This document shows, in pieces, positions 15,523 to 28,384 of a stretch of 64,000 nucleotides of DNA. Below the pieces are notes generated by a model. That model saw nothing but the letters and a program-made list of their open reading frames with translations, was not told where the DNA came from and made no database searches. A program made the position numbers and the translations under genes. Position 1 is the stretch's first letter; every line of letters starts with the position of its first letter. This DNA comes from Thermoplasmata archaeon (GTDB lineage Archaea > Thermoplasmatota > Thermoplasmata > UBA10834 > DTMW01), in contig JAWCKK010000002.1 in NCBI GenBank assembly GCA_038852105.1, forward strand, positions 42,621 to 106,620. The letters are read 5' to 3'.

Positions 15523-17160
15523 TTGCCTGGTGCAACGAGCGGCAGACTTTGCCCTATTTGCGATTCGCCGATAGAGGCCGGAGCAAAGAAATGCTCATTC
15601 TGTGGCACCGACCTCACCATGTTTGAGGAAGAAGCGAAGAGCGCGAAAAGGCAAGAAGGTAGGCTGATTAGAGAAGAATATCAACCTGCGGCCCAAGCGC
15701 CGGCAGCGGCTCCTCCTAAGGACTCGACCCCGCGGGTCGAGCCAGTAGCCGCTCCATCGGCCGCAGAGGAAGAGGCGATTTATCAATGTCCCGCCTGTGG
15801 CAAGAACGTCAAGGAAAGCGATAATGTCTGTCCTCATTGCGGAGCGATTTTCTCTGAGGAGGCTCAGTTCGAATGCCCTGCCTGCCATACGCTCGTGAAT
15901 GCCGACGCGACTAAATGTCCTGGCTGTGGGGCGATATTTGTCGAGGAAGAGGCCGCTGCACAGGCGGCGGCTCCGGCGGCGCCAGCAGTCGAACCGAAAA
16001 AGGCGGAGCCTGCGCAACCGCCGACTCCGACTTTGCCTGCGACGGCCAAGGTCGGAGAAGACGAGGAGATGAAGAAAATAATCTCCCGGATCAAGGAAAC
16101 GAGGGAAATGGAGAAAGAGGCTCCGAAGAAGAAACCTGCCAAGAAGGGATTCGGGGGTTTGTTCAAGTCAATTCTGCCGAGGGGAGAAGCAGCGGAGAAA
16201 AAGGAAGCGCCTGCAAAAGAGGCTCCGAAGCCTCCCGAAAAGGCCCCGACGCCGGCAGAGGCTGTTTCTGCAAAGAAACCCACCGCGCCCGCAGAGCCGA
16301 CCAAGGTCGAGCCCTCGGCTGCGCCTGGGGCGGCAACCGTCGCGCAGGAGCCGGTGCAGAAAAGGCAATGGCCGACCGACCCGAGAGAGCAAGGAAAGGA
16401 GCTGGCTCGTCTCGTGGCAGAGGTCAGGGCGTTGCTCAGCATCGCAATGGAGCACTCGATAATGATTGACGAGACGAAAGCGCTCCTCGATAGGGCGATA
16501 ACTGCAGGTCGCGAGAGGCAGTTCATATTGGCTCTCGACACGATAGCCGAGGGACAGGCGAAGCTAAACAACCAATTGAGGGAATACGTCGGCGCGAACA
16601 TGGCGTCGATCACGGAAGAGATCGCCGTCGCGAAGAAGCTCGGCGGGGACACGTCGAGGGCGGAGATATTCCTGAAGGAGGCTTCCAGGGTCGCCGAGAA
16701 GGCCGATTATCAGGCGTCGCTAGTGTTCATAGACAAGGTTCGGAACGAGCTTGCTCCGGTGACCGGTCAGTACAACGAGTTGAAGAATTCCCTCCGGAAG
16801 TTCGAAAGGCTCGTCAAGGATTCCCGCGTCATCGGGATAGACAACGAGCCTCTCAAGAAGGACTACGATACCGCGAAGGCGGCTTTCGATGCGCTCGATT
16901 TCGCAAAAGCTGAGGGGATTATCAAGAAAAAGACAGCAGAGATACTCGAACAGATACCTGAGAGGATGACGAAGGAAATCGAGAAGGCGAAGCAGCTCCT
17001 CATCGAGGCGAAGATGAAGACGGACGTAGGGATGGCCCCTCAGATATCGATTCTCAAGTCCGCAATTCGGAACCTGCAGGATAAGAAATACCTCGAAGCG
17101 TTGGCGGATCTCAAGACGTTCAAGAAGGAGATGAAGAAACTGCTCAGCCAGTCGGCTTGA
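15523..17160 (+). CDS. Triple zinc-ribbon protein with Pro/Ala/Lys-rich linker and four C-terminal helical repeats
   Basis: CPIC-x10-CSFC, CPAC-x10-CPHC, CPAC-x10-CPGC; TTG start behind GGAGG; no signal peptide or TM segment. Confidence 0.85.
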   Translation: MPGATSGRLCPICDSPIEAGAKKCSFCGTDLTMFEEEAKSAKRQEGRLIREEYQPAAQAPAAAPPKDSTPRVEPVAAPSAAEEEAIYQCPACGKNVKESDNVCPHCGAIFSEEAQFECPACHTLVNADATKCPGCGAIFVEEEAAAQAAAPAAPAVEPKKAEPAQPPTPTLPATAKVGEDEEMKKIISRIKETREMEKEAPKKKPAKKGFGGLFKSILPRGEAAEKKEAPAKEAPKPPEKAPTPAEAVSAKKPTAPAEPTKVEPSAAPGAATVAQEPVQKRQWPTDPREQGKELARLVAEVRALLSIAMEHSIMIDETKALLDRAITAGRERQFILALDTIAEGQAKLNNQLREYVGANMASITEEIAVAKKLGGDTSRAEIFLKEASRVAEKADYQASLVFIDKVRNELAPVTGQYNELKNSLRKFERLVKDSRVIGIDNEPLKKDYDTAKAAFDALDFAKAEGIIKKKTAEILEQIPERMTKEIEKAKQLLIEAKMKTDVGMAPQISILKSAIRNLQDKKYLEALADLKTFKKEMKKLLSQSA

Positions 17161-19321
17161 GCACCTCGAACTCCCTCTCGAGGATTGAAATCTCCTGCGG
17201 CTTCAACGTTCCCGGGCTGACGGAAATCATCATTATCGAGTCGCTCTCGGAGAATTCGTCTATCAACCGCCGCAGGAATCTCAGCACCCCGTCGAAGCTC
17301 GTGTTGCTTATCAGGTATTGGAGCCCATCTATCAGCAATATCCCTTTCTCCCCTTGACCCAAGAACTCCTCTATCGTATGGACTATCATCTCCAGGCTCG
17401 GCGGGATCGTCCTCTCGTTCTTGCTCTCTTTGTCCGTTAGCCAGATTATCTCCCCGCTGATGCCGTAATCGCTTCTCACCTTGCCGGGGTTCATCCTCGT
17501 TATCTCCAATCCGCGGTAGCCCTCTTTTATCATCCGAGCCAAGAGCAGGTTGCTGTGCGTCGGCCGATCTTCCTCGATCAGATAGCTATGCCCGGGTTTG
17601 ACCTCCAGCTCGTGAACTCCCTCCTTCTCGGGCGCACCCAGGGTCGGCGTCAAGACCTCTTTCGCAAGTTGCAGGTCGATATCGAGCTTCATGACCGTCG
17701 CAAAGGCTATCAGCCGATTCAACGCGGCCTCCAGCTCCCGGACGTTCGATTCTATCCTGTCAGAGATGAATTCGATCACTTGAGCCGGTATTTCCCTGCC
17801 TTTCTCCTTCGCCTTCCTTTTGAGTATCTCTACCCTCGTCTGCTTGTCAGGCGGCTGGATGTCCGCTATCATCCCGCCCTGTATCTTCGCTGCCAGATGC
17901 TCCGACAGCTTGGGTATTTCCTTCGGCAGGCGGTCGCTCGCGATGACTACTTGTCCGCCGTTGCGGAGAGTGTCTTCGATGAGGTACAAAAGTTCGACCT
18001 GTGCGGCCTCCTTGCCCGCTAAGAATTGGAAGTCGTCGATCATGAACAGCTTCTTGCGTCTCAACCTGTCTCTGAGGCCGTGAACATCGTTCCTTTTGAT
18101 AGCGAGGTCTAGTTCTTCAGCGAACTTCTCCGCCGGAAGAAGCACTATGCTATCCTTCGAACTCTTGGCCATTATCTGCCTTGCAATGGCATTGAGCAGA
18201 TGGGTCTTGCCAAGACCGGACTTTCCGTACAGGAAGAGCGGGTTGTAGGCCTTATCAGGCGCATGGGCGACGGCAACAGCCGCGGCATATGCGAACTTGT
18301 TGCTCTTGCCGACGACGAAAGACTGGAATCCCATGCCCTCCGTCAGCGCGAGCAAGGAACTCTCCTCGCCCTTGCACTTTGGACAAGATCCGTCTCCGTC
18401 AAGCACGGAGCCGCACTTCTCGCATGTCGGCACTTCCTGCTTCGGTATTTCGCCCCTCTGGTATTGGAGTATCAGATCGTACAGGTCTCCCGTCTTCGCA
18501 TCCCGTTGCTTCCTTTTCAGATCCTCTTCTATCTTCTTCTCGGCTATCTTGATCTCCTCTATATGCCGCCTTATTTTCTCCTTAAGGGACACGAAATCGG
18601 CCTTTATGTTGTCTATATCCGAGGGGTCGCTCAGGCGAAGCTTCAGTGCCTGAATCTCGTTCTCGAATCCTACCTGAGGCAGGCTATCCAGCTGTTTCTC
18701 CAGCTTCTTCAGGTCATCTATTTTTTCTTTATACTCCGCGAGCGCCTTCTTCGCTCCGGCTTTGCTCTGTCTGAACAGCTTCTCCAACTCATCGACGACG
18801 TATCCCTGACGTCTCAGCTCGAGAATCTCCCCGAGGACCGGGTCTGTCTCCTCGGATGGCGGGGGTTCGATTTCCTCGGGCCTCTCCTTTTCCTTTGTCT
18901 CGGCGACGCGCCGTTCTTCTGGCTGTATGAGGCTCTTCAAATCTATGCTGTCCATCTCGAGCAATTTTGCGTCCGGGAATCTGCGATCGAACTCCTCTTT
19001 CGGGACCCTGCTGTGGAGCTCTATTACCGCCTGCCTGTCCTGAGCATCCTCCAGAATGAACCTCATCGATTTGTCGCCCGCATAGATCCTCTTTATCTCT
19101 CTGGGCTCCTTCTTCTCGAATTGGTATATCGACATCGTCGGCATGCCCTGATCGACGACCAGATATCCTGTCGAACTCATCGACTCCTTCTTCAGGATGA
19201 CCTTGACGTATCCCGTGAAAGTGTACTGTTTCAAATCCGAAAGTATGCCGGCCAGAACGCCAGGCCCGCCTCTCGCAGTCCTGACGACTATCCCCTCGGG
19301 TATTCGAAGCTCGGCAGACAA
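17144..19321 (-). CDS. Multidomain protein: DUF2226-like N-terminus, coiled coil, zinc ribbon, DnaA-type AAA+ domain and DUF835 (KaiC-like)
   Basis: FQSFVVGKSNKFAYAAA, YNPLFLYGKSGLGKTHLLNAI, MIDDFQFLAGK, ASDRLPKEI, ADIQPPDKQTRVEIL, SNVRELEAALNRL are diagnostic of DnaA domain III. The C-terminus GHSYLIEE...ITRMNP...IIWLT...LLIDGLQYLI...F..VLRFL is DUF835-like. No DnaA domain IV HTH is present. Confidence 0.9.
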   Translation of the reverse strand: MSAELRIPEGIVVRTARGGPGVLAGILSDLKQYTFTGYVKVILKKESMSSTGYLVVDQGMPTMSIYQFEKKEPREIKRIYAGDKSMRFILEDAQDRQAVIELHSRVPKEEFDRRFPDAKLLEMDSIDLKSLIQPEERRVAETKEKERPEEIEPPPSEETDPVLGEILELRRQGYVVDELEKLFRQSKAGAKKALAEYKEKIDDLKKLEKQLDSLPQVGFENEIQALKLRLSDPSDIDNIKADFVSLKEKIRRHIEEIKIAEKKIEEDLKRKQRDAKTGDLYDLILQYQRGEIPKQEVPTCEKCGSVLDGDGSCPKCKGEESSLLALTEGMGFQSFVVGKSNKFAYAAAVAVAHAPDKAYNPLFLYGKSGLGKTHLLNAIARQIMAKSSKDSIVLLPAEKFAEELDLAIKRNDVHGLRDRLRRKKLFMIDDFQFLAGKEAAQVELLYLIEDTLRNGGQVVIASDRLPKEIPKLSEHLAAKIQGGMIADIQPPDKQTRVEILKRKAKEKGREIPAQVIEFISDRIESNVRELEAALNRLIAFATVMKLDIDLQLAKEVLTPTLGAPEKEGVHELEVKPGHSYLIEEDRPTHSNLLLARMIKEGYRGLEITRMNPGKVRSDYGISGEIIWLTDKESKNERTIPPSLEMIVHTIEEFLGQGEKGILLIDGLQYLISNTSFDGVLRFLRRLIDEFSESDSIMMISVSPGTLKPQEISILEREFEVLKPTG

Positions 19322-19609: not shown

Positions 19610-20134
19610 TCAATATCTTCCGATCGAGGAGTATCTTATTGAGCTCCGCATGACCGACCCCGAATGCACTCCGACGGTCGCCAGCTCTCTCTTCCTGAGC
19701 ATGCGCTTCTTCTTGATGATCATCTCGATCATCTTCTCGTCGATGAAACCCGTGCGCGTGTCGATTATTCCCTTGTCCTCGAGGACATGCACCCAGAAGC
19801 TGAACGCCCGGGGGCTCATCTTCTTGGCCTCGGCAATCCTTCCCGTGGCGATCAACTTCAAGACGTCCATGTCTATCGTACCGCCGAACTCGCGCTCACC
19901 GGTGGCAATGAGAACCATGTTGAGCAGCTTCTTCCTGCCCTTTCGCATGCTCTTTATATCCGTGTAGGAGTAAATCGAGCCGTCTTTCACCTTCTGCTCT
20001 ATCTCCCAAATCGGCAGATTATCAAGGGCTCTAACCCGTGCTATGAGAACACAATAATCCGTAGCCTTGCGGATCTTTAGCAGAGACGGATTTACGAGCG
20101 TATTCCTCGATCCCCTGGCGCTCCTATTCTTCAA
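19610..20134 (-). CDS. Hypothetical basic protein
   Basis: 174-aa ORF filling the gap between tRNA-Thr and thiC; protein-like composition, no recognised motif; start uncertain. Confidence 0.5.
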   Translation of the reverse strand: MKNRSARGSRNTLVNPSLLKIRKATDYCVLIARVRALDNLPIWEIEQKVKDGSIYSYTDIKSMRKGRKKLLNMVLIATGEREFGGTIDMDVLKLIATGRIAEAKKMSPRAFSFWVHVLEDKGIIDTRTGFIDEKMIEMIIKKKRMLRKRELATVGVHSGSVMRSSIRYSSIGRY

Positions 20135-20313: not shown

Positions 20314-21603
20314 TCACTTTCTCGTATTTTTATCCTGCTTTAGTGCCTCTTCGGACAATCGCATGGCGCAATATTCTCCGCACATTGTGCAGACCGTCGA
20401 ATCGGCCGAATCGAACCTGTTTCTTATCTCGGTCGCCTTCGTCTTGTCTATGCACAGGTCGAGCATCTGCTGCCAATCGAGAGCCTTTCTCGCGGCGGAC
20501 ATCCTGGCGTCCCAATCGGAGTCTATCCCCCTTGCGAGGTCAGCCGCGTGAGCCGCGATCTTCCCGGATATGACGCCTTCGCGGACATCGTCGACCGTGG
20601 GCAGCGAGAGGTGTTCGGAAGGGGTGACGCAGCAAAGGAAATCCGCACCGTAATATGCCGCGAGCGCACCACCAATAGCGCTCGTGATATGGTCGTAGCC
20701 AGGGGCGATGTCTGTCACGAGCGGCCCGAGGACGTAGAACGGCGCGCCGTCGCATATCGTCTTTTCCAGCCGGACGTTCGCCTCGATCTGGTTCAACGGG
20801 ACATGGCCAGGGCCTTCGACAATCGTCTGCACGCCCGCCTCTCTCGCCCTCCTGACGAGCTTGCCAAGTACCGCGAGCTCCGCGAGTTGGGCGGGATCCG
20901 TGGCGTCCGCGGTGCACCCGGGTCTGAGCCCGTCCCCGAGGCTCAAGGTGAGCTCGTATCTCCCGGCGAGTTCGAGAAGGTAATCGTAGCTCTCGAAGAG
21001 GGGGTTCTCATTTCCGGTATGCGCCATCCATCTGAGCAGTATAGCTCCGCCGCGGGACACTACATCGGTGATTCTCGGATGCTCTGCAAGCACCTGCGCG
21101 GTTTTCTTCGTCACGCCGCAATGCACGGTGATGAAATCGACTCCCTGCTTCGCGTGCTCTTCTATGACGGAAAAGATGTCGTCCTCCGTCATGTTGAGGA
21201 TACCGCCCCTTCCCCCCATCCTGCAGGCGACTTCGTATATCGGCACGGTGCCGAGCGGGATGCGCACCATCTTCAGAAGCATCGCCCGGATTGCCTTGAG
21301 GTCGCCACCGGTGCTCAGATCCATAATGGTGTCCGCGCCGTACTTAATCGCCACCTTCGCCTTCTCGAGCTCGAGGTCTCGGTCGATCATATCGGGCGAA
21401 GTCCCTATATTGGCATTTATCTTGACGCTGATCCCTTCGCCTATCGGCGCAGGCCTCGATATCGAATGCGCCGGGTTATGCGGCAGCACCGCTCTCCCTG
21501 CGGCTATCGCCCGCCGCAGCTTGTCGGGATCCATCCCCTCCCATTTGGCCGCACACTCTATCTCGGGCGTTATGCGAGATTCGGCCTCGCAGATAAGGCT
21601 CAT
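20314..21603 (-). CDS. thiC: Phosphomethylpyrimidine synthase ThiC
   Basis: KINANIGTS, TIMDLSTGG, GTVPIYE, SRGGA, SLGDGLRPG, EGPGHVP, YVLGPL, TPSEHL and the radical-SAM-type CTMCGEYC motif; AGGTG RBS before ATG 21603. Confidence 0.95.
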   Translation of the reverse strand: MSLICEAESRITPEIECAAKWEGMDPDKLRRAIAAGRAVLPHNPAHSISRPAPIGEGISVKINANIGTSPDMIDRDLELEKAKVAIKYGADTIMDLSTGGDLKAIRAMLLKMVRIPLGTVPIYEVACRMGGRGGILNMTEDDIFSVIEEHAKQGVDFITVHCGVTKKTAQVLAEHPRITDVVSRGGAILLRWMAHTGNENPLFESYDYLLELAGRYELTLSLGDGLRPGCTADATDPAQLAELAVLGKLVRRAREAGVQTIVEGPGHVPLNQIEANVRLEKTICDGAPFYVLGPLVTDIAPGYDHITSAIGGALAAYYGADFLCCVTPSEHLSLPTVDDVREGVISGKIAAHAADLARGIDSDWDARMSAARKALDWQQMLDLCIDKTKATEIRNRFDSADSTVCTMCGEYCAMRLSEEALKQDKNTRK

Positions 21604-21699
21604 TAGATACACCTATCGGGGTATTCGATATGTATATTTTCATGGTCCTCGAATGTGCTGTCGGAATCTGGCATCAATTGCCTTCGACAGGGAGGCTAA

Positions 21700-23799
<2,100 letters not shown>

Positions 23800-23809
23800 G
23801 TGATGACGG

Positions 23810-26368
<2,559 letters not shown>

Positions 26369-26498
26369 CCGCGTATTCTCAAAGCATCTGGCAACTCTTT
26401 ATTGATTTCGATAACGAACCAAAAACCTTTATTAGTGATTAGGTGTCTTGAACACGATAAGCGCGCCGACCAGTCCGCTTGACTGGAGGCCTGACCAA

Positions 26499-27218
26499 AT
26501 GTTCAAAGACTCCATCCCAGGCTTGGAAAAAGTGTTCAAGATTGACATCGAGCGCCCCAAGGTCATTCTCGTAACGGGGCCGCCGGGATCCATGAAGACG
26601 AGTTTCTGCTACACGCTGATGTCGAAGTACCTCGAGAAGAGGAACGAGTTCGGATTGTACTGCACGCTCGAGGAGACCGTCGACAGCCATCTGAAGAACA
26701 TGGAGAGCCTCGGCGTGAGGCTCACGACGAAGATGCAGATATCTGACCTGACCGACCTCAGGGAGATAGACGAGCTCGACGAGGTCATGGGGAAGAAGGA
26801 CGAGATCGACTATCTCCTGTTCATAGAGCGCATGATCCAGAAGTTCAAGGAGGAGCAGGGGGACAAGTTCTCGATATTCGTCCTCGACTCGCTCGGGGCA
26901 CTGTACTCGCTCATGGAGGACGTCGAGAACATGCGCAAGAAGATGTTCTACTTCTTCAAGATGCTCAGGGACAGCAATTTATTCTCGTTCGTCATAATGG
27001 AGAGATCGCTGTCGGGCGAATCGCAGCTGCTCGGGAACGAGGGGTTCCTGGCGGACGGCATCATGATGCTCGGGCTGGACAGACAGAGGGGCACGCTGAC
27101 TAGGTATCTGCAGGTGGAGAAGATGCGGGCCTCGGAGCACAGCATGGAAAGGCACGCGCTGGAGGTCGGCAAGGGAGGAATAACCGTTCTTGGACCGCTG
27201 CTCAGCGGCGGAGAATGA
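26499..27218 (+). CDS. KaiC/RAD55-like RecA-fold ATPase
   Basis: IPGLEKVF, Walker A variant GPPGSMKT, YCTLEE, Walker B VLDSL, ADGIMML, LQVEKMR. Start placed at ATG 26499 (GGAGG RBS; BRE-TATA-like AAAAACCTTTATTA at 26421-26434); TTG 26448 is an alternative. Confidence 0.85.
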   Translation: MFKDSIPGLEKVFKIDIERPKVILVTGPPGSMKTSFCYTLMSKYLEKRNEFGLYCTLEETVDSHLKNMESLGVRLTTKMQISDLTDLREIDELDEVMGKKDEIDYLLFIERMIQKFKEEQGDKFSIFVLDSLGALYSLMEDVENMRKKMFYFFKMLRDSNLFSFVIMERSLSGESQLLGNEGFLADGIMMLGLDRQRGTLTRYLQVEKMRASEHSMERHALEVGKGGITVLGPLLSGGE

Positions 27219-27241
27219 ACGCTGTTCGCTATTGAAAAGGG

Positions 27242-28384
27242 ATGGAAATGAACGAAGATAGCCAGACAATCTCGAAAGTCGTGGAGGATTTCGTCTCGAA
27301 GCTCAAGTCTCAGGAAGAGGAAATCCGGAGGAAGAACAAGGAGATCGAGCAGCAGAGGCTGGAGATCGAGAAGAAGAGCTCCGAGGTCGCGAGCCTCGAG
27401 AAGAGGCTCAAGGAGAGAGACGCGGAGCTGACTCAGCTCAGCAAGGTGCTCGACGAGAAGAAGGCCGAGCTCGAGAGAAAGGCGAAGGAGCTCGATGCCA
27501 AGGTGGTCGAGCTGAGCAGGGCCGAGGAGGGGCTGAAAGAGCGCTCGGAGACTCTGGACAGGTTGGAGTCCGAAGCCCGGGAAAAGATGGAAGCAATTAA
27601 GCTCGAAGAGGCCCGCGTGTCGGAGATGCGGGACAAGCTCGCCGAGCGCGAGAACGCCCTGGCCGAAGAGGAGGGCAAGCTGAAGAGACTCGTAGAGGAG
27701 ATGACCTCTCTTCGAGCGTCGATAGCGAAGCGCGACCAGGAGCTGAAGAGGGAGTACGAGGAACTCCAGGCGCAACGGGAGCGGCTGTCCGAAGAGAGCA
27801 TGAAGCTCACCGAGAAGCAGAAGCGCCTGATCGAGGCCGAGACCTCTCAGGAGCGGCGAGCCATAGAAGCGGCCGAGGAGGCAAAGGCCGAGGCGGAGAA
27901 GATGGCCGCGGAGAAGGAGCAGGTTCCGATAGCGGAAAAGCCGGGCGCGAAGGCCGAGGAGATATTCGCGGAGGCGGCGCAGGAAGTGAGGTCGGAGGAG
28001 GTGGCTCCTCAGCAAGAAGCCCCGGTCGAGGAGGGGGAGATGCCCTGCCCCAATTGCGGCACTATTATCAGCTCCGATGCGATAATGTGCTACGCGTGCG
28101 GCGCGACCCTGGGAGGCGAGGGCGCTGCGGCGGGAGAAGAGGAGCGCGAGGAAGGTGGCGAGCCTGAAAAATCAGAAGCGCCGAGCGAGGATGAGATGCC
28201 CTGCCCCAACTGTGGCACGATGATAAGCAAGGAAGCGACGGTCTGCTACGCCTGCGGAGAAGAGGTCACAGCTGGCTCAAAGGGGACAGAAAGTGCTCCT
28301 GCCAAGCAGGAAGCCGGAGAGCCCGTAATCATCAAGAAGCCCCCGGTGTTCGTCAAGAAAGTGATGAAAAAGAAGATAGGCTGA
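27242..28384 (+). CDS. Coiled-coil protein with two duplicated zinc ribbons and a basic C-terminal tail
   Basis: About 200 aa of E/K/R/L heptads; EMPCPNCGTIISSDAIMCYACG and EMPCPNCGTMISKEATVCYACG; ends KKVMKKKIG. Confidence 0.85.
   Translation: MEMNEDSQTISKVVEDFVSKLKSQEEEIRRKNKEIEQQRLEIEKKSSEVASLEKRLKERDAELTQLSKVLDEKKAELERKAKELDAKVVELSRAEEGLKERSETLDRLESEAREKMEAIKLEEARVSEMRDKLAERENALAEEEGKLKRLVEEMTSLRASIAKRDQELKREYEELQAQRERLSEESMKLTEKQKRLIEAETSQERRAIEAAEEAKAEAEKMAAEKEQVPIAEKPGAKAEEIFAEAAQEVRSEEVAPQQEAPVEEGEMPCPNCGTIISSDAIMCYACGATLGGEGAAAGEEEREEGGEPEKSEAPSEDEMPCPNCGTMISKEATVCYACGEEVTAGSKGTESAPAKQEAGEPVIIKKPPVFVKKVMKKKIG

Follow-up and report, generated by a model that had tools for sequence, protein, structure and literature searches.

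A DnaA-derived AAA+ module with a lysine at the arginine-finger position in a multidomain protein family of the Thermoplasmata

A genuine DnaA domain III in an archaeal protein

The subject of this study is a DnaA-like gene in a 64,000-nucleotide stretch of DNA (hereafter the window) from a Thermoplasmata archaeon (GenBank assembly GCA_038852105.1, contig JAWCKK010000002.1, positions 42,621 to 106,620). Open reading frame (ORF) calling and translation placed the gene at 17144-19321 on the reverse (-) strand, with a TTG start that is common to its closest relatives (loci L020 and L055) and a product of 725 residues; coordinates are those of the window, and all parts of this gene lie on the same (-) strand. 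We found that the protein contains a genuine DnaA domain III, of the AAA+ initiator clade, with lysine at the position of the arginine finger, and that this lysine is a lineage-level variant within an otherwise intact, widespread family. DnaA is the hallmark replication initiator of Bacteria, and the Archaea are the textbook Orc1/Cdc6 organisms. We favor, with a probability of about 0.58, the reading that the archaeal protein is a DnaA-derived ATP-binding switch or assembly module in which inter-subunit ATP sensing would have been lost or weakened.

The identity of the domain was established by several comparisons. Pfam matched Bac_DnaA (PF00308) to residues 328-486 with an E value of 1.8e-48 and Hda_lid to residues 495-537, and Pfam, Foldseek and HMMER together delimited a DnaA-type AAA+ core at residues 328-490 (17852-18340), followed by the AAA+ lid (Pfam Hda_lid) at residues 491-560 (17642-17851). 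The interval discussed in an earlier sequence-only reading of this DNA, 17650-18340 (-), corresponds to residues 328-557. Searches of PDB sequences with phmmer produced HMMER alignments that were ungapped from upstream of Walker A through sensor II, with E values of 6e-62 for Bacillus subtilis DnaA (8btg/8bv3), 5e-45 for Thermotoga maritima (2z4r) and 2e-33 for Aquifex aeolicus (1l8q/3r8f). Foldseek superposed the predicted AAA+ part on B. subtilis DnaA domain III (8bv3) with a template-modelling (TM) score of 0.95, a root-mean-square deviation of 1.4 A and 45% identity, and the initiator-specific helical insert was intact in the archaeal domain. The archaeal protein thus has the same AAA+ fold as domain III of the Escherichia coli, B. 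subtilis, T. maritima and A. aeolicus initiators, with Walker A and B, E204, K243 and the sensors identical. It differs from them in that DnaA domains I, II and IV are absent, their place being taken by an N-terminal domain, a coiled coil, a zinc ribbon and a DUF835 domain, and in that it combines a Lys finger, His281 and Asp211 in a host having Orc1/Cdc6.

Individual residues were assigned by a MAFFT alignment to E. coli K-12 DnaA (from NC_000913.3), in which the numbering offset was constant at +194. The residues retained were K178 and T179 (K372 and T373) of the Walker A motif GLGKT (18203-18217), E204 (E398), D235/D236 (D429-D430) of Walker B (18032-18037), K243 (K437), D269 (D463, in ASDR) of sensor I (17933-17935) and R334 (R528, in NVRE) of sensor II (17738-17740). 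The residues replaced, with their codons checked, were V211 of the hydrophobic single-stranded DNA (ssDNA)-binding "H" motif (D405; 18107-18109), R245 of the basic "B" motif (A439, within K437-E-A439; 18005-18013), and R281 and R285 of box VII (H475 and K479, in H475-L-A-A-K479; 17885-17899), where EHLAAKIQGG of the window protein faces DRLKSRFGWG of DnaA and the K479 codon is AAG at 17885-17887. In DnaA, R285 is the finger that contacts the ATP of the flanking protomer, and V211 and R245 belong to the H and B motifs (PMC10325909). The sequence-only reading had stated that Walker A, Walker B and both sensors were retained while R285, R281, V211 and R245 had become Lys, His, Asp and Ala. The ungapped alignments and the codons bore out the retention, every replacement that it named was confirmed, and the finger position aligned with DnaA as Lys, not Arg. 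The R245 position is variable among bacterial DnaAs (B. subtilis has Gln and T. maritima has Gly), and because of this the Ala there is not diagnostic when taken alone. A sequencing error at K479 was considered and rejected, because Lys is present in all 35 members of the clade described below.

The E. coli DnaA mutants R285A and V211A-R245A are altered at the same positions as the natural archaeal sequence, and their nucleotide binding is intact. Substitutions at R285 and at V211-R245 of the E. coli protein impair ATP-dependent head-to-tail assembly and binding of the single-stranded DNA unwinding element, respectively (PMC10325909 and work cited there). The two situations differ in that the E. 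coli finger substitution is to Ala and the archaeal one is to Lys, evolutionarily fixed and set in a different architecture, with the archaeal side known from sequence.

The lysine finger is confined to one clade

The closest homologues numbered 121, including the database copy of the window's own protein, and had Arg at the finger position in 85 cases and Lys in 36 (the database copy being one of the 36). The Lys-finger sequences formed one clade, which is a family-level group of its own (Shimodaira-Hasegawa-like approximate likelihood ratio test (SH-aLRT) support 99) and is sister to the Arg-bearing rest of the order, so that the finger was Lys in 35/35 members of the clade versus Arg in 85/85 of its sister. 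The substitutions named in the sequence-only reading are therefore not general among archaeal homologues, the Lys finger being restricted to this single family-level clade. By comparison, the residues of nucleotide binding hardly varied across the 121 sequences: the Walker A Lys, the Walker B DD and the sensor I Asp were present in 121/121 and the sensor II Arg in 120/121, and inside the Lys clade the Walker A K/T, Walker B DD, sensor I D and sensor II R were all invariant. Mean pairwise identity of the AAA+ core was 0.67 in the Lys clade versus 0.72 in the sister clade. Since this identity is near that of the sister clade and the residues acting on nucleotide in cis are invariant, the AAA+ core of the Lys clade does not appear to be decaying.

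The positions around the finger behaved differently. At the V211 position, E or D was found in 35/35 members of the Lys clade and a hydrophobic residue was never found in the 120 sequences of the order. At the R281 position, the sister clade had Arg in 84/85, versus six residues in the Lys clade (Q9/S9/R8/H5/P3/L1), in which Arg persists in the basal members L067/P0020 and P0029. This pattern indicates that the R281 position was probably released from constraint after the change of R285 to Lys, and the variability argues that the inter-subunit ATP contact really changed, rather than simply being conserved through Lys.

The wider family was sampled by 42 representatives of clusters at 50% identity. 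In these the Walker A Lys (42/42), Walker B DD (40/41), sensor I Asp (35/39) and sensor II Arg (35/37) were again common, as were Arg at the finger (36/38) and at R281 (30/38), and the ssDNA-binding positions were more mixed, with I, L or V at V211 in 21/40 and Arg at R245 in 16/41. The complete bacterial pattern, K-[IVL]-DD-[KR]-R-D-R-R-R, occurred in L069, L070, L074, L080 and several representatives. Since the complete set is found in several families, the ancestral archaeal protein would have had the full DnaA equipment, and the loss of the finger appears, on these distributions, as a late and local event in one family-level clade and not as a family trait.

A few sequences outside this clade also depart from Arg at the finger. 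Locus L099 (1460-2926 (+), genome G075, same class), a 489-residue ORF with the order coil, DnaA domain III and DUF835, has an independent Arg-to-Lys change of the finger, along with Asn at sensor I and Ser at sensor II. In other classes of the phylum, three genes that match weakly show Ala or Leu at the finger, on low-similarity alignments that are less certain, and two of the three (the Poseidoniales-like L095 and L096) have Arg in place of the Walker A Lys too.

A proposed course from initiator module to switch

Taking homology, architecture, residue states, phylogenetic distribution and conserved neighborhood as direct observations, we infer the biochemical consequences and cellular role as follows. 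The ancestral archaeal protein probably had the P-loop, Walker B, sensors, both box VII arginines and the H/B ssDNA motifs. The hydrophobic H-motif residue may then have been lost in the window organism's own order, after which the ancestor of one family-level clade would have exchanged its arginine finger for Lys and R281 would have become free to vary, with the residues for ATP binding and hydrolysis within one subunit seemingly held invariant throughout. On this course, a protomer would still bind ATP or ADP and change conformation, but would read the ATP of its neighbor weakly or not at all, and the DnaA-style grip on ssDNA and head-to-tail assembly would be lost or much weakened. The protein would then work as a switch or scaffold gated by nucleotide, rather than as a filament that opens strands. 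Its self-association would probably be by way of the coiled coil and the DUF835 domain, and its output would probably pass to the protein of a convergent zinc-ribbon gene and to KaiC-like ATPases, both of which are described below.

The protein is not expected to initiate replication

The genome of the window (1.53 Mb, 88% complete) contains two Orc1/Cdc6 genes above the curated cut-off. No Pfam or NCBIfam DnaA match that could represent DnaA domain I, which binds partners, or domain IV, the helix-turn-helix part that binds DnaA boxes, was found outside residues 279-566 of the DnaA-like protein. The NCBIfam DnaA equivalog model TIGR00362 covers only these residues and, at 274.2 bits versus a cut-off of 343.9, falls below its threshold, as does the Hda model TIGR03420 (98 bits versus 194.8). 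Based on the two Orc1/Cdc6 genes and the absent domains I and IV, a role as replication initiator is very unlikely. The sequence-only reading had already argued that the protein is no origin-melting initiator, and the missing domains, the TIGR00362 score, the two Orc1/Cdc6 genes and the acidic residue at the H position all agree with this. It had further proposed an ATP/ADP-binding switch, possibly needing an arginine finger supplied by a partner in the manner of Hda. Of these two ideas, the switch is plausible given the invariance of Walker A, Walker B and sensors I and II. The partner-supplied finger lost ground: a second DnaA-family gene was sought as finger donor, and no second PF00308 gene was found in the genome (88% complete), which leaves the Hda-like idea without support.

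Hda (TIGR03420; 5x06) is likewise homologous to DnaA domain III and has no DNA-binding domain, and the archaeal lid matches Hda_lid. The residue pattern of Hda is the opposite one, in that its P-loop is degenerate (GAGRS) while the finger is kept. The targets of Hda are full-length DnaA and the beta clamp.

Architecture of the five-part protein

The order of parts in the protein is a PATAN-like N-domain, a coiled coil, a zinc ribbon, DnaA domain III and DUF835. An AlphaFold model of the full protein, built with 61 homologues, had a mean predicted local distance difference test (pLDDT) of 81, separated the domains clearly and showed an alpha/beta domain at residues 11-114, a linker at about 126-158, helices at 161-288, the AAA+ core and lid at about 342-561 and a RecA-like domain at 579-721. 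The window protein shares with an unnamed five-part Thermoplasmata family this architecture, its occurrence as a single copy and the convergent zinc-ribbon neighbor, and we regard it as a member.

The N-terminal alpha/beta domain (residues 8-118; 18968-19300), delimited by conservation, model and profile, shows the highest conservation within the protein, with many invariant columns. Modelled alone, it reached a pLDDT of 91 and a predicted TM score (pTM) of 0.84. Foldseek found no match to its fold in the PDB (best E value 0.05), its profile matched no PDB sequence, and no Pfam family matched the window protein's own N-domain. Among 1.84 billion proteins, the profile found 317 cluster representatives at E <= 0.001 and reached, at an E value of 2.5e-12, a Theionarchaea protein that Pfam calls as DUF2226/DUF4388, this transitive link to PATAN/DUF2226 running via P0219. 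Weak DUF2226 matches were present in 9/29 family members (best E value 0.015) and one DUF4388 match had an E value of 0.028, all below the cut-offs. The profile link and the weak member matches together suggest that the N-domain is probably a remote relative of PATAN (DUF4388)/DUF2226. The same profile also reached proteins that consist of the N-domain and DUF835 without DnaA.

The N-domain is followed by a disordered acidic linker (residues 119-160; 18842-18967), with pLDDT below 50 at residues 131-158, and by a helical/coiled-coil segment (residues 161-295; 18437-18841) defined from the AlphaFold secondary structure. The zinc ribbon has the form CxxC-x9-CxxC (C300, C303, C313 and C316; 18371-18427; codons checked). 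Its cysteines are at least 90% conserved, and weak DZR matches were found in 39/61 members.

The C-terminal domain (residues 576-722; 17156-17596) sits at the place of DnaA domain IV and was matched by Pfam to DUF835 (PF05763) at residues 588-718 with an E value of 8e-28 and 97.4 bits versus a cut-off of 33.1. It has an alpha/beta pattern in the model and is without a P-loop, GxxGxGK[ST] being absent from residues 576-722. Galperin et al. 2018 (PMC5847659) classed DUF835, an output domain in response regulators of Archaea, as an "inactivated KaiC" (iKaiC). The receiver (REC)-DUF835 response regulators and the window protein both have a clear DUF835, and the conserved neighborhood of the archaeal gene includes a KaiC-like ATPase; they differ in that a receiver domain is the input in the regulators and a DnaA-type AAA+ domain is found in the window protein. 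The same genome has 10-11 DUF835 ORFs, two of which are inside giant ORFs of 1374 and 1771 residues.

Conserved neighbors of the gene

The DnaA-like gene converges with a gene for a 545-residue protein (15523-17160 (+)) that has a triple zinc ribbon (Pfam Zn_ribbon_3/DZR) and helical repeats, and the 3' ends of the two genes overlap by 17 nucleotides (17144-17160). A homologue of this zinc-ribbon gene was directly tail-to-tail with the DnaA-like gene in all loci of the order in which the contig extends past the 3' end of the gene, and in 18/20 loci from other families, often overlapping. The convergent zinc-ribbon gene is the strongest conserved neighbor.

Farther away are genes for a KaiC-like single-domain ATPase (26448-27218 (+); Pfam KaiC, E value 2.4e-32, and NCBIfam KaiC-type models) and for a coiled-coil/double-zinc-ribbon protein (27242-28384 (+); Pfam DZR). 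In six loci from other families (L072, L075, L077, L078, L079 and L085), genes of these two kinds adjoin the zinc-ribbon partner. In the window they are part of a block (20314-28384) comprising thiC, divergent gyrB-gyrA, the KaiC-like gene and the coiled-coil/DZR gene, which is kept gene for gene in all loci of the order. The presence of thiC and gyrB-gyrA on the upstream side extends to four other families, where the block is partly kept, and the order gyrBA-thiC-DnaA-like gene was not seen in at least 11 other sampled families. The adjacency of gyrase and DnaA-like genes recalls the bacterial dnaA-gyrB region and is not universal in the class. Co-transfer with gyrase is a tentative lead.

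The best Orc1/Cdc6 gene is 37 kb away in this genome, and in three complete chromosomes from the order the distance is 45-47 kb. Proximity to the origin was considered as a family-wide feature and rejected: it is a matter of local synteny, because in another family the Orc1 distance is 455 kb. The second Orc1/Cdc6 gene, on another contig (C14) outside the window, adjoins a stand-alone DUF835 ORF of about 220 residues (C14:33977-34360 and C14:34625-35704).

Between thiC and the DnaA-like gene there is an ORF of 174 residues (19610-20134 (-)) with no Pfam or NCBIfam match. Its homologues were limited to the two closest relatives (L020/L067 and L055/L066), and in the sister clade a Yip1-like or other gene takes this place.

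Distribution, origin and other architectures

More than 3000 homologues of equal length and domain content came from a word-indexed search, the named ones being from uncultured Thermoplasmata, under the labels "DnaA/Hda family protein", "DUF835 domain-containing protein" and "chromosomal replication initiator protein DnaA". In a survey with one genome per species and a threshold of E <= 1e-20, the AAA+ domain was present in 190/401 genomes of the class (53/105 genera) and in 47/49 of the order. It was mostly single copy and in ORFs of about 550-830 residues, and the five-part architecture, which is stable through the class, was also present in 20 loci from other families. A phylum-level survey found the module in 56/251 genomes, with further architectures, and DnaA domain IV was found in none of the phylum-level or other relatives examined. 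We found no description of a fusion of DnaA domain III with DUF835 in open-access papers and bioRxiv preprints, and within this literature the family is apparently undescribed.

In a maximum-likelihood tree of domain III rooted with E. coli Hda, the archaeal domains clustered with the DnaAs of E. coli and B. subtilis and were nested within the branches to A. aeolicus and T. maritima (SH-aLRT 96 and 86). This position, together with the 45% identity to B. subtilis, favors acquisition from Bacteria, which is most likely how the Thermoplasmata obtained their DnaA domain III. A donor cannot be named, because only four bacterial sequences are in the tree.

Further architectures were observed among the relatives. 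Variants of 1250-1420 residues (L094:1521-5792 (+), genome G525; P0177, P0190, P0202 and P0208) have the N-domain, about 850 residues of repeated helical/coil units, each with "W..GY.V..LE", DnaA domain III and a C-terminal double zinc ribbon, with DUF835 absent. The zinc-ribbon fusions in these long variants parallel the separate zinc-ribbon partner gene of the window. Shorter forms of 430-480 residues (L090-L093; genomes G442, G505, G525 and G561) consist only of a short basic/amphipathic N-terminus (MGLLDWFK-type, with basic residues), a coil and DnaA domain III, with both domain IV and DUF835 absent. Many of these larger genomes (2-5.5 Mb) have at least two DnaA domain III genes, and G534 has nine.

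A different recruitment of the same bacterial module is seen in L098 (2332-4794 (+), genome G419, same phylum), which encodes an 821-residue fusion of a complete DnaA domain III (Pfam, 1.3e-69) with a FlaI/PilB-type ATPase (T2SSE, 6.6e-36) and retains both box VII arginines. Taken together, the T2SSE fusion and the PATAN-like character of the N-domain are a hint that may point to type IV pilus-type ATPases. In Synechocystis, PATAN response regulators are reported to bind the type IV pilus ATPase (bioRxiv 10.1101/2021.06.11.447907).

Alternative explanations

Lysine can serve as a catalytic or sensing finger in other P-loop nucleoside triphosphatases, and the change at K479 might therefore be near neutral. 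This is one of several points that weigh against an altered, switch-like module. The others are the pTM of 0.42 for the full protein, which makes the inter-domain geometry unreliable; the location of the gene in the gyrB-gyrA block, about 37-47 kb from orc1 in its own order, which makes a chromosome-related role possible; and the bacterial outgroup of four DnaAs, by which the transfer scenario and its direction are weakly sampled. If K479 is a working finger, it would contact the gamma-phosphate of the neighbor's ATP, and the protein would form ATP-dependent, DnaA-like oligomers, as the orthologues with Arg are presumed to do. The preserved positive charge, the fixation of Lys in 35/35, the continuing constraint on the rest of the AAA+ domain and the second independent Arg-to-Lys change at the same position in L099 all fit this explanation. 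We nevertheless consider it unlikely, although the strongest of the alternatives, for the subsequent loss of constraint at R281, with six residues versus R in 84/85, is unexpected if the interface is unchanged, L099 is also degenerate at sensors I and II, and Arg is the residue in 36/38 family representatives and in all four bacterial DnaAs compared. At the other extreme, the AAA+ domain could be decaying into a purely structural scaffold to which nucleotide binding is irrelevant. The stepwise loss of functional residues in the lineage would be expected from decay, and the weakly matching L095 and L096 also have Arg for the Walker A Lys and no finger, but the invariant Walker A, Walker B, sensor I and sensor II residues of the clade, and a core about as conserved as that of the Arg-bearing sister clade, leave decay with very little credibility.

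The conserved neighborhood bears on a further explanation, in which the protein is an accessory chromosome or replication factor whose DnaA-derived module acts on DNA near the origin, or in concert with gyrase or Orc1/Cdc6, and might for instance mark the status of replication. This would account for the conserved gyrB-gyrA block, for the distances to the best Orc1/Cdc6 gene in this genome and the three complete chromosomes, and for the DUF835 gene beside the second orc1 paralogue, and orthologues in other families do retain the full set of ssDNA-binding and filament residues. We judge it doubtful, and more so than a working Lys finger, as no DNA-binding domain was recognized and the H motif is acidic in the clade, orc1 is 455 kb off in another family, many families lack the gyrase linkage and have KaiC-like and zinc-ribbon neighbors in its place, and the fusions seen in relatives are with a FlaI/PilB-type ATPase or zinc ribbons and never with a DNA-binding module. 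The Hda-like logic, in which an ATP-bound acceptor hydrolyzes its nucleotide when triggered by the arginine finger of a separate partner, suits the formal description of the protein as a receive-only subunit, with P-loop, Walker B and sensors intact and its own finger absent. It is improbable nonetheless: this is the sole PF00308 match in the genome (at 88% completeness an absence is not proven), the Hda pattern is the opposite one and the Hda model scores 98 bits versus 195, and the conserved neighbors are of zinc-ribbon and KaiC type rather than AAA+, although a donor among other AAA+ proteins is conceivable. Compared with these explanations, a DnaA-derived nucleotide switch with weakened or lost inter-subunit ATP sensing is the reading that we prefer.

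Implications

About half of the sampled Thermoplasmata genomes carry a well-conserved DnaA domain III in an architecture that is not that of an initiator, showing that the engine of an initiator can be captured and re-used. A practical consequence is that the label "chromosomal replication initiator protein DnaA" on these archaeal genes is misleading. The series of residue states begins with the full set, passes through a form blind to ssDNA and ends with the Lys finger and the release of R281, and it provides natural variants for two questions, namely what the arginine finger contributes to the assembly of AAA+ initiators and how a cooperative filament-former evolves into a switch.

We also speculate, and hold this to be a tentative and rather unlikely extension, that the family forms a natural series of complete DnaA-like modules, a Lys-finger, ssDNA-blind form and near-dead forms, in which the window protein's own clade would have turned a cooperative filament-former into a self-contained nucleotide switch, whose inactivated-KaiC and PATAN-like parts would pass the signal on to ATPases of the KaiC or type IV pilus type. 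If this speculation is correct, a replication initiator would have given rise to a new class of signalling ATPase in Archaea.

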